From Escherichia coli (lineage in GTDB: Bacteria > Pseudomonadota > Gammaproteobacteria > Enterobacterales > Enterobacteriaceae), in assembly GCF_003334305.1 (NCBI RefSeq), contig NZ_QOWS01000005.1: 64,000 nucleotides of DNA; one strand, 5' to 3'. How positions within the stretch are numbered: the first letter of the stretch is position 1; the number at the start of each line of letters is the position of its first letter. This document shows positions 6,223 to 6,420 of this stretch, one piece after another. Made by a program: the position numbers and the translations under genes. The notes under the pieces are model-generated. The model was not told the DNA's origin. It made no database searches and saw only the letters and a program-made list of their open reading frames with translations.

Positions 6223-6420
6223 TTTTGCACCTTTTAAGAGCCATTGAAAACAAGGAGTTGAGTCCTGATTGGTTTATCGTATGGCCGAGTCGTTTAATAA
6301 TCACCCTGATGTTGAACAACTTTATCACTGTATTACTGTGATCAATGTACCAGGACGTATAGCTACTGCGGGATATGATATTTAAACAATGTAATCTGTT
6401 ATATACCAGTAAGGGAAAAT

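Follow-up and report, generated by a model that had tools for sequence, protein, structure and literature searches.

Is the partly palindromic element between a GntR-family regulator gene and a PTS EIIB gene in this Escherichia coli islet the operator of that regulator, does it belong to some other protein, or does it do nothing at all? The initial annotation of the window, by which we mean the whole 64,000-nucleotide stretch of E. coli DNA that was analysed, with positions counted from its first base, had called the element a candidate GntR operator and supposed that it may be unoccupied, with the regulator apparently truncated.

The bgc locus and the flagged palindrome

Genes were assigned from the RefSeq annotation of strain H15, which is 100% identical to the window over 5400-7000, and of isolate AHB1, with tblastn used in addition for the genes downstream. 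In these annotations the regulator and the beta-glucoside genes are held by an accessory islet that is flanked by eamA and marB in the E. coli chromosome. The GntR/HutC-family regulator gene bgcR, which by the H15 annotation and comparison with homologues is a pseudogene here, lies at 5524-6222 on the minus strand. The operon runs the other way, starting with the EIIB gene bgcE (6421-6732, plus strand) and continuing over 6847-11701 with genes for EIIC (6847-8169), EIIA (8197-8508), a carbohydrate porin (8564-10237) and a 6-phospho-beta-glucosidase (10262-11701), all on the plus strand. The GTG of bgcR (6220-6222, minus strand) and the ATG of bgcE (6421) bound an intergenic gap of 198 nt (6223-6420). 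The islet matches the known bgc beta-glucoside/cellobiose operon with its divergent bgcR, because its gene set and order agree with the description in PMC3585215. In the bgc operon divergent bgcR is followed by bgcE (IIB), bgcF (IIC), bgcI (IIA), bgcH (porin) and bgcA (phospho-beta-glucosidase). With reference to Neelakanta et al. [quoted passage not shown]

The islet is carried by about 2,505 of 5,426 complete E. coli genomes; it is present in Nissle 1917 (B2), in CE10 and in E. albertii, and K-12 BW25113 is without it, matching only the eamA flank. Earlier work reportedly described the bgc operon and bgcR in septicaemic and uropathogenic E. coli. CRP is reported to be needed for bgc expression, BgcR is said to activate it, and one base change in the promoter (bgc*) is said to make the operon independent of BgcR.

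The palindromic string TACTGTGATCAATGTA is found where the initial annotation had put it, between the regulator and EIIB genes and within the 198-nt gap, except that it occupies 6334-6349 and not about 6335-6350, a shift of one base. It is also partly palindromic around TGATCA as claimed, with 6 of 8 complementary pairs. Palindromes of this quality are nevertheless no more frequent than chance allows, since the window has 312 16-mers with at least 6 of 8 pairs and its shuffles have 279 on average; per 198 nt about 0.84 are expected and two were observed. The fit to the GT-Nx-AC pattern turned out to be trivial, as it amounts to GT-N9-AC. A match to the CRP core TGTGA-N6-TCACA with two mismatches is likewise not above chance, with 22 such matches in the window and 28.8 expected. 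The functionality of part of the element is evident solely from its conservation across species and its position, and the palindromic reading of it is incidental.

An exact 12-nt copy of part of the element, TGTGATCAATGT, lies inside the bgcR coding region at 5994-6005, 343 nt from the intergenic copy; about 0.6 matches with one mismatch or none are to be expected in a window. We considered this copy as a further operator or CRP site and rejected it; it is not conserved in E. albertii, Salmonella or Citrobacter, encodes a variable peptide and is probably a coincidence.

Conservation between genera and within E. coli

A profile scan for BgcR loci that covered one genome per species gave 79 of them. 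About 30 enterobacterial loci have the regulator in divergent orientation to a gene for EIIB, EIIC or a GH1 phospho-beta-glucosidase, across a gap that is usually about 198 nt. For the comparison of control regions 24 were aligned, and 32 species-level regions ranging from Escherichia to Erwinia, Yersinia and Rouxiella were anchored without gaps. In both sets no block of the intergenic region has a higher information content than the heptamer (T/A)GTGATC at 6337-6343, which is near-invariant in the 32 anchored regions, 30 of which keep TGTGA. The right arm of the palindrome, AATGTA, is retained among the 32 only in Escherichia, Salmonella diarizonae and Citrobacter On2M. The initial annotation had named a lack of conservation in orthologous intergenic regions as the outcome that would speak against its proposal. 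That outcome was not seen for the left core, which is conserved, while the right arm is not. The description of 6223-6420 as the divergent control region of the island was borne out, and the element overlaps the best-conserved cis-element of that region.

The order of conserved parts is an inverted repeat, 18 or 19 nt, (T/A)GTGATC, N6 with a variable second half, 21 nt, and a TAnnnT hexamer. The second half that follows N6 is TACCA in E. coli and TAACA, TGGCA, GACGA or CTGCG in other lineages. From the first base of the core to the start of the hexamer the distance is 37 nt in almost every one of the 32 orthologues, the exceptions being Erwinia and Rouxiella, which differ from TAnnnT at the first base or two.

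Within E. coli the bgc intergenic region diverges by up to 5.6%, and both TGTGA and TACCA are kept in seven divergent alleles. Two changes fall in the element, C6336T, which breaks a palindrome pair, and A6345G in the N6 spacer; both lie outside the CRP cores. An exact run of at least 28 nt over the element was found in 2,114 of about 2,500 island-bearing genomes. The allele of the window is a common one (at least 99% identity in 1,427 records), and it differs from six other E. coli alleles in having A and not T at 6299, in the spacer of the inverted repeat, and A and not C at 6385, at about -1 of the predicted transcription start.

In many E. coli lineages the bgc locus is undergoing decay, each time independently. 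In FDAARGOS_943 (L087, 2440-2600 and 3017-3916) a deletion has joined the inside of eamA to sequence immediately upstream of the CRP core, with loss of bgcR and the repeat, and an IS1 interrupts the EIIC gene. Stop codons are found in the porin gene of AHB1 and in the EIIC gene of E57. Outside E. coli, the Kluyvera cryocrescens locus (L011, about 1-556) carries an IS5-like element of the ISKpn26 family, 99.6% identical to E. coli copies, between GTTAA and CTGTGATC. This insertion point falls exactly between the repeat and the CRP core and parts bgcR and the repeat from the promoter.

One explanation of the palindrome would be that it is a chance feature of an AT-rich intergenic region, a functionless and decayed remnant in a cryptic operon. 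Such an explanation can draw on the chance frequency of palindromes this good and of two-mismatch CRP-core matches, on the background-level matrix score of the E. coli site given below, and on the lesions of the locus in many strains (K86* in bgcR, the AHB1 porin, the E57 EIIC, the FDAARGOS_943 deletion with its IS1). However, it does not account for a TGTGATC that is kept together with its distance to the -10 hexamer from Escherichia to Erwinia and the Yersiniaceae, that is also kept across E. coli alleles with varying flanks, and that lies within the long exact run shared by most island-bearing genomes. We regard a purely accidental origin as highly improbable.

A CRP-type site and a predicted promoter

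Read on the opposite strand the conserved core is GATCACAnTT, in agreement with the consensus of a CRP half-site and of the bases that flank it. In E. coli the corresponding CRP-type 22-mer, TACTGTGATCAATGTACCAGGA, spans 6334-6355 on the plus strand, with TGTGA at 6337-6341, N6, TACCA at 6348-6352 and its centre at 6344/6345. Compared to TGTGA-N6-TCACA (22-bp consensus AAATGTGATCTAGATCACATTT) its left half agrees at 5 of 5 positions and its right half at 3 of 5.

To score these sites we used a rough CRP matrix made from 15 classical sites, and all scores are approximate; the training sites themselves score 10.2-17.1 bits. With this rough matrix the E. coli site reaches 3.8 bits, ranks 177th in the window and does no better than shuffles, and it is the best CRP-like 22-mer within the intergenic region. 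The same position scores 9.4-15.2 bits with the rough matrix in 10 of 17 other lineages, namely Salmonella diarizonae, Citrobacter On2M, UBA5654, Superficieibacter, Cedecea, Buttiauxella gaviniae, two species of Erwinia, Yersinia and Rouxiella. Kluyvera and Raoultella also have a degenerate right half (0.8-3.8 bits by this rough measure). For E. coli the largest gains that the rough matrix predicts are those of C6350A (+5.5 bits) and A6349C (+3.7 bits). Conservation of the core extends over species that have CRP in common, from Escherichia to Erwinia, Yersinia and Rouxiella. From the comparison of sequences we take the position to be a putative CRP site of ancestral origin, the downstream half of which became degenerate in Escherichia, Kluyvera and Raoultella.

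The TAnnnT hexamer in the window is TATGAT at 6374-6379 on the plus strand, which we predict to be the -10 of the bgc promoter given its fixed spacing in the 32 orthologues. Transcription would then start near 6386, with about 35 nt of leader. Because the hexamer stands at a fixed 37 nt from the core and is taken as the -10 (-12 to -7), the centre of the CRP-type site would be at -41.5 from the start so placed, which is the class II position. No -35-like hexamer was seen in the 32 orthologous bgc promoter regions, and a sigma-70 consensus scan of the region found no plus-strand promoter. The missing sigma-70 match fits an activator-dependent promoter that lacks a -35. TATATA at 6400-6405 was considered as the main -10 and set aside; its conservation does not reach beyond Escherichia, and the leader would be reduced to about 9 nt. 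An RNA element was also ruled out, as no Rfam family matched within 5900-6900 and the predicted fold of the leader is not unusual (z = -0.94).

Taken together, conservation and spacing make it probable that what is conserved of the element represents one half of a CRP site, the upstream one, and that the bgc promoter it serves is of the class II, activator-dependent type. The proposal that the partial palindrome is the dimer operator of the GntR/HutC regulator BgcR has several points in its favor. The element lies in a divergent control region that adjoins the regulator gene, its core accompanies BgcR orthologues in all of the genomes examined and occurs a further time beside bgcR in the second module described below, and the regulator is truly of the HutC type. 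What counts against the proposal is that only one arm is conserved, with the dyad lost in most genera, and that a pair of the palindrome is broken by the C6336T allele of E. coli itself. Moreover, the HutC signature GT-N-TA-N-AC, searched with at most one mismatch in 29 orthologous intergenic regions, has no match at the element, and the copy within bgcR, a conceivable further operator, is not kept even in E. albertii. The conserved bases are instead the bases of the CRP consensus, the orthologues score as CRP sites, and the centre at -41.5 without a -35 is the place of a class II activator, in line with the reported dependence of the operon on CRP. We therefore consider the operator proposal very unlikely and do not uphold it.

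The HutC-signature scan gave a single recurrent weak match elsewhere, the block TTTAAAACA at 22-29 nt upstream of the bgcR start, which is the exact GTATAAAC in C. amalonaticus. This block may be a half-site or the -10 of bgcR. A block AAAACA-N4/5-GTTA is conserved 22-40 nt upstream of the bgcR start (6243-6262 in the window), and on the minus strand its TGTTTT(n)AAT could be a candidate bgcR -10; in C. amalonaticus this block, too, is given by the exact HutC-like GTATAAAC.

The regulator and a candidate BgcR site

BgcR and its homologues carry PF00392 and PF07702, a GntR winged helix-turn-helix with a UTRA domain, which places them in the HutC subfamily; the nearest solved structures are YvoA/NagR, YydK and DasR. 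The homologues span E. albertii (87% identity), Citrobacter, Salmonella, Kluyvera, Raoultella and Cedecea, and extend to Erwinia and Yersinia. The suspected truncation of the regulator was confirmed. In comparison with the intact 232-aa allele WP_000577184.1, that of Nissle and CFT073, bgcR here has an in-frame TAA at 5965-5967 (AAA to TAA, K86*), and RefSeq labels the gene in H15 a pseudogene with an 'internal stop'. The allele is rare: a 33-nt probe centred on the mutation picked it up in only 9 of the 5,426 complete E. coli genomes, H15, A7 and A28 among them. The same copy of bgcR has a second change, T138R, at a residue that is otherwise invariant in 19 homologues.

Since BgcR is an activator according to PMC3585215, K86* is expected to silence the operon and not to free an operator. 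The operon in this strain is thus predicted to be silent, not derepressed, and the strain is not expected to be able to induce it. That the site stands unoccupied owing to the truncated regulator does not follow, as the element reads as a CRP site and BgcR activates.

The inverted repeat upstream of the CRP-type site, GTTTA-N16-TGAAC at 6292-6317, is a better place to look for BgcR. Its left arm is GTTTA in Escherichia and GTTCA elsewhere. Arms and N16 spacing are conserved in all 32 orthologues, in 29 of them with at most one mismatch, and the repeat is also kept in Yersinia and Rouxiella, where the first downstream gene is for a different glycosidase. Its centre (6304/6305) precedes that of the CRP-type site by 40 bp, with both on one face of the helix. 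The repeat is not enriched outside bgc within the 64-kb window.

The repeat recurs in a second module (m2), just downstream of bgcR in 11 genomes of Cedecea, Buttiauxella and relatives (at about 4200-4420 in L009, L015, L017, L018, L020, L021, L022, L025, L026, L029 and L031). Here it precedes a ROK-family kinase gene and then a phospho-beta-glucosidase gene, and the layout is GATCACAnTT, N18, GTTCA-N16-TGAAC, about 59 nt and the conserved string AGGTTCAAAAGT. In the first module AGGTTCAAAAGT is the spacer between the ribosome-binding site and the start codon of bgcR, and m2 looks like a duplicate of the bgcR-bgcE control region that includes a remnant of the bgcR start region. As the repeat co-occurs with the regulator at two promoters, it is our best candidate for the BgcR site.

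The spacer between Shine-Dalgarno and GTG of bgcR (TTTTGAAC or TTTTGCAC; 6223-6231 in the window) is nearly invariant between genera, and CACTTTTGCACC spans start and spacer at 6220-6231. The repeat arm occurs in this spacer for a third time (as TGAAC or TGCAC), and may here be an autoregulatory half-site rather than the result of translational constraint.

In m2 the CRP half-site is conserved beside the repeat though there is no gene on its class II side, and for this reason the core may, besides being a classical class II site, work together with the repeat as a single composite. Taken to its full extent, this would mean that TGTGATC and GTTCA-N16-TGAAC are one composite site, bound by BgcR alone or by BgcR and CRP cooperatively, in which the core is no independent CRP site. 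The fixed distance of 18 or 19 nt between core and repeat in the 32 orthologues would agree with this, as would their joint duplication in m2, where the core is without a recognisable second CRP half or a gene on the class II side. The core is, however, unlike the arms of the repeat and matches a CRP half-site including its flanks, and in several lineages a second CRP half of good quality (TAACA) follows after exactly N6. If CRP and BgcR bound cooperatively, this would in any case agree with a class II CRP site and not compete with it. We consider the composite reading unlikely and retain the class II CRP site as the preferred explanation.

On that explanation, cAMP-CRP would bind TGTGA-N6-TACCA (6337-6352), about 41.5 bp upstream of the start near 6386, and would there take the place of the absent -35 in recruiting RNA polymerase to the -10 TATGAT (6374-6379). 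With the downstream half-site degenerate in E. coli, CRP alone would be a weak activator and BgcR would be required as well. BgcR would most likely sit on GTTTA-N16-TGAAC (6292-6317), which lies four helical turns farther upstream and faces the same side of the helix. Both the cryptic bgc phenotype of E. coli and the need for BgcR are in keeping with a weak CRP site.

A more tentative idea is that BgcR recognizes two HutC-like half-sites set 16 bp apart and, at 18-19 nt from a CRP half-site, forms with CRP a portable module that is found from Escherichia to the Yersiniaceae and has been duplicated in front of a second operon. We think this possible, though the odds are against it. If true, such a split site would suit a splayed HutC dimer and could explain why BgcR activates rather than represses.

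Significance and comparison with known systems

The outcome for the motif itself is that it would be assigned to CRP rather than to the local GntR regulator, and the significance of this is mostly one of annotation, as the element is a known kind of promoter element in an already described operon. The degenerate CRP half-site together with the dependence on BgcR would explain why bgc is cryptic in E. coli. The rigid arrangement of repeat, CRP half-site and -10 across the Enterobacterales, duplicated in some genera, has modest relevance to how HutC-type activators bind DNA, and the conserved and duplicated module of split repeat and CRP half-site is the sole lead that we would call mildly new.

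HutC operators such as the dre sites of DasR and NagR/YvoA, and those of GmuR and BguR, are compact dyads of 15-19 bp with abutting half-sites. BgcR belongs to the same subfamily, and the repeat arms GTTCA / TGAAC resemble the half-sites GTcTA / TAgAC. The flagged element, in contrast, is without the signature, and the half-sites of the candidate BgcR repeat are 21 bp apart centre to centre, which is unusual. The GmuR and BguR sites are given as 5'-tAAATGTaTAGACAttTa-3' (PMC3585215).

The closest likeness of the promoter is to class II CRP promoters. At promoters of this class such as galP1, CRP is centred at -41.5. The bgc promoter shares with the galP1 type a site over the -35 position, no -35 hexamer, one consensus and one poor half, and a fixed distance to the -10. 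It differs in the strength of its site, as classical CRP sites score 10-17 bits and the E. coli bgc site 3.8 bits with our rough matrix, and in that bgc reportedly needs a second, operon-specific activator as well.

A further parallel is the cryptic bgl promoter of E. coli, where the operon is switched on by point mutations that make the CRP site a better one. This too is a cryptic beta-glucoside operon with a sub-optimal CRP site, one which starts with AACTGTGA, the sequence that is present in most bgc orthologues, and a single base change is said to activate bgc as well. However, bgl is under H-NS silencing and BglG antitermination and is without a HutC activator.

The E. coli bgc operon itself has the same gene set and order as found here, and it is accessory, missing from K-12 but found in B2 strains, Nissle 1917 among them. 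Its reported dependence on CRP fits a class II site. The activation by BgcR, as given in PMC3585215, fits a site for an upstream activator. There is no structural difference between the two, which are the same locus; what sets this strain apart is that its bgcR is a nonsense pseudogene.
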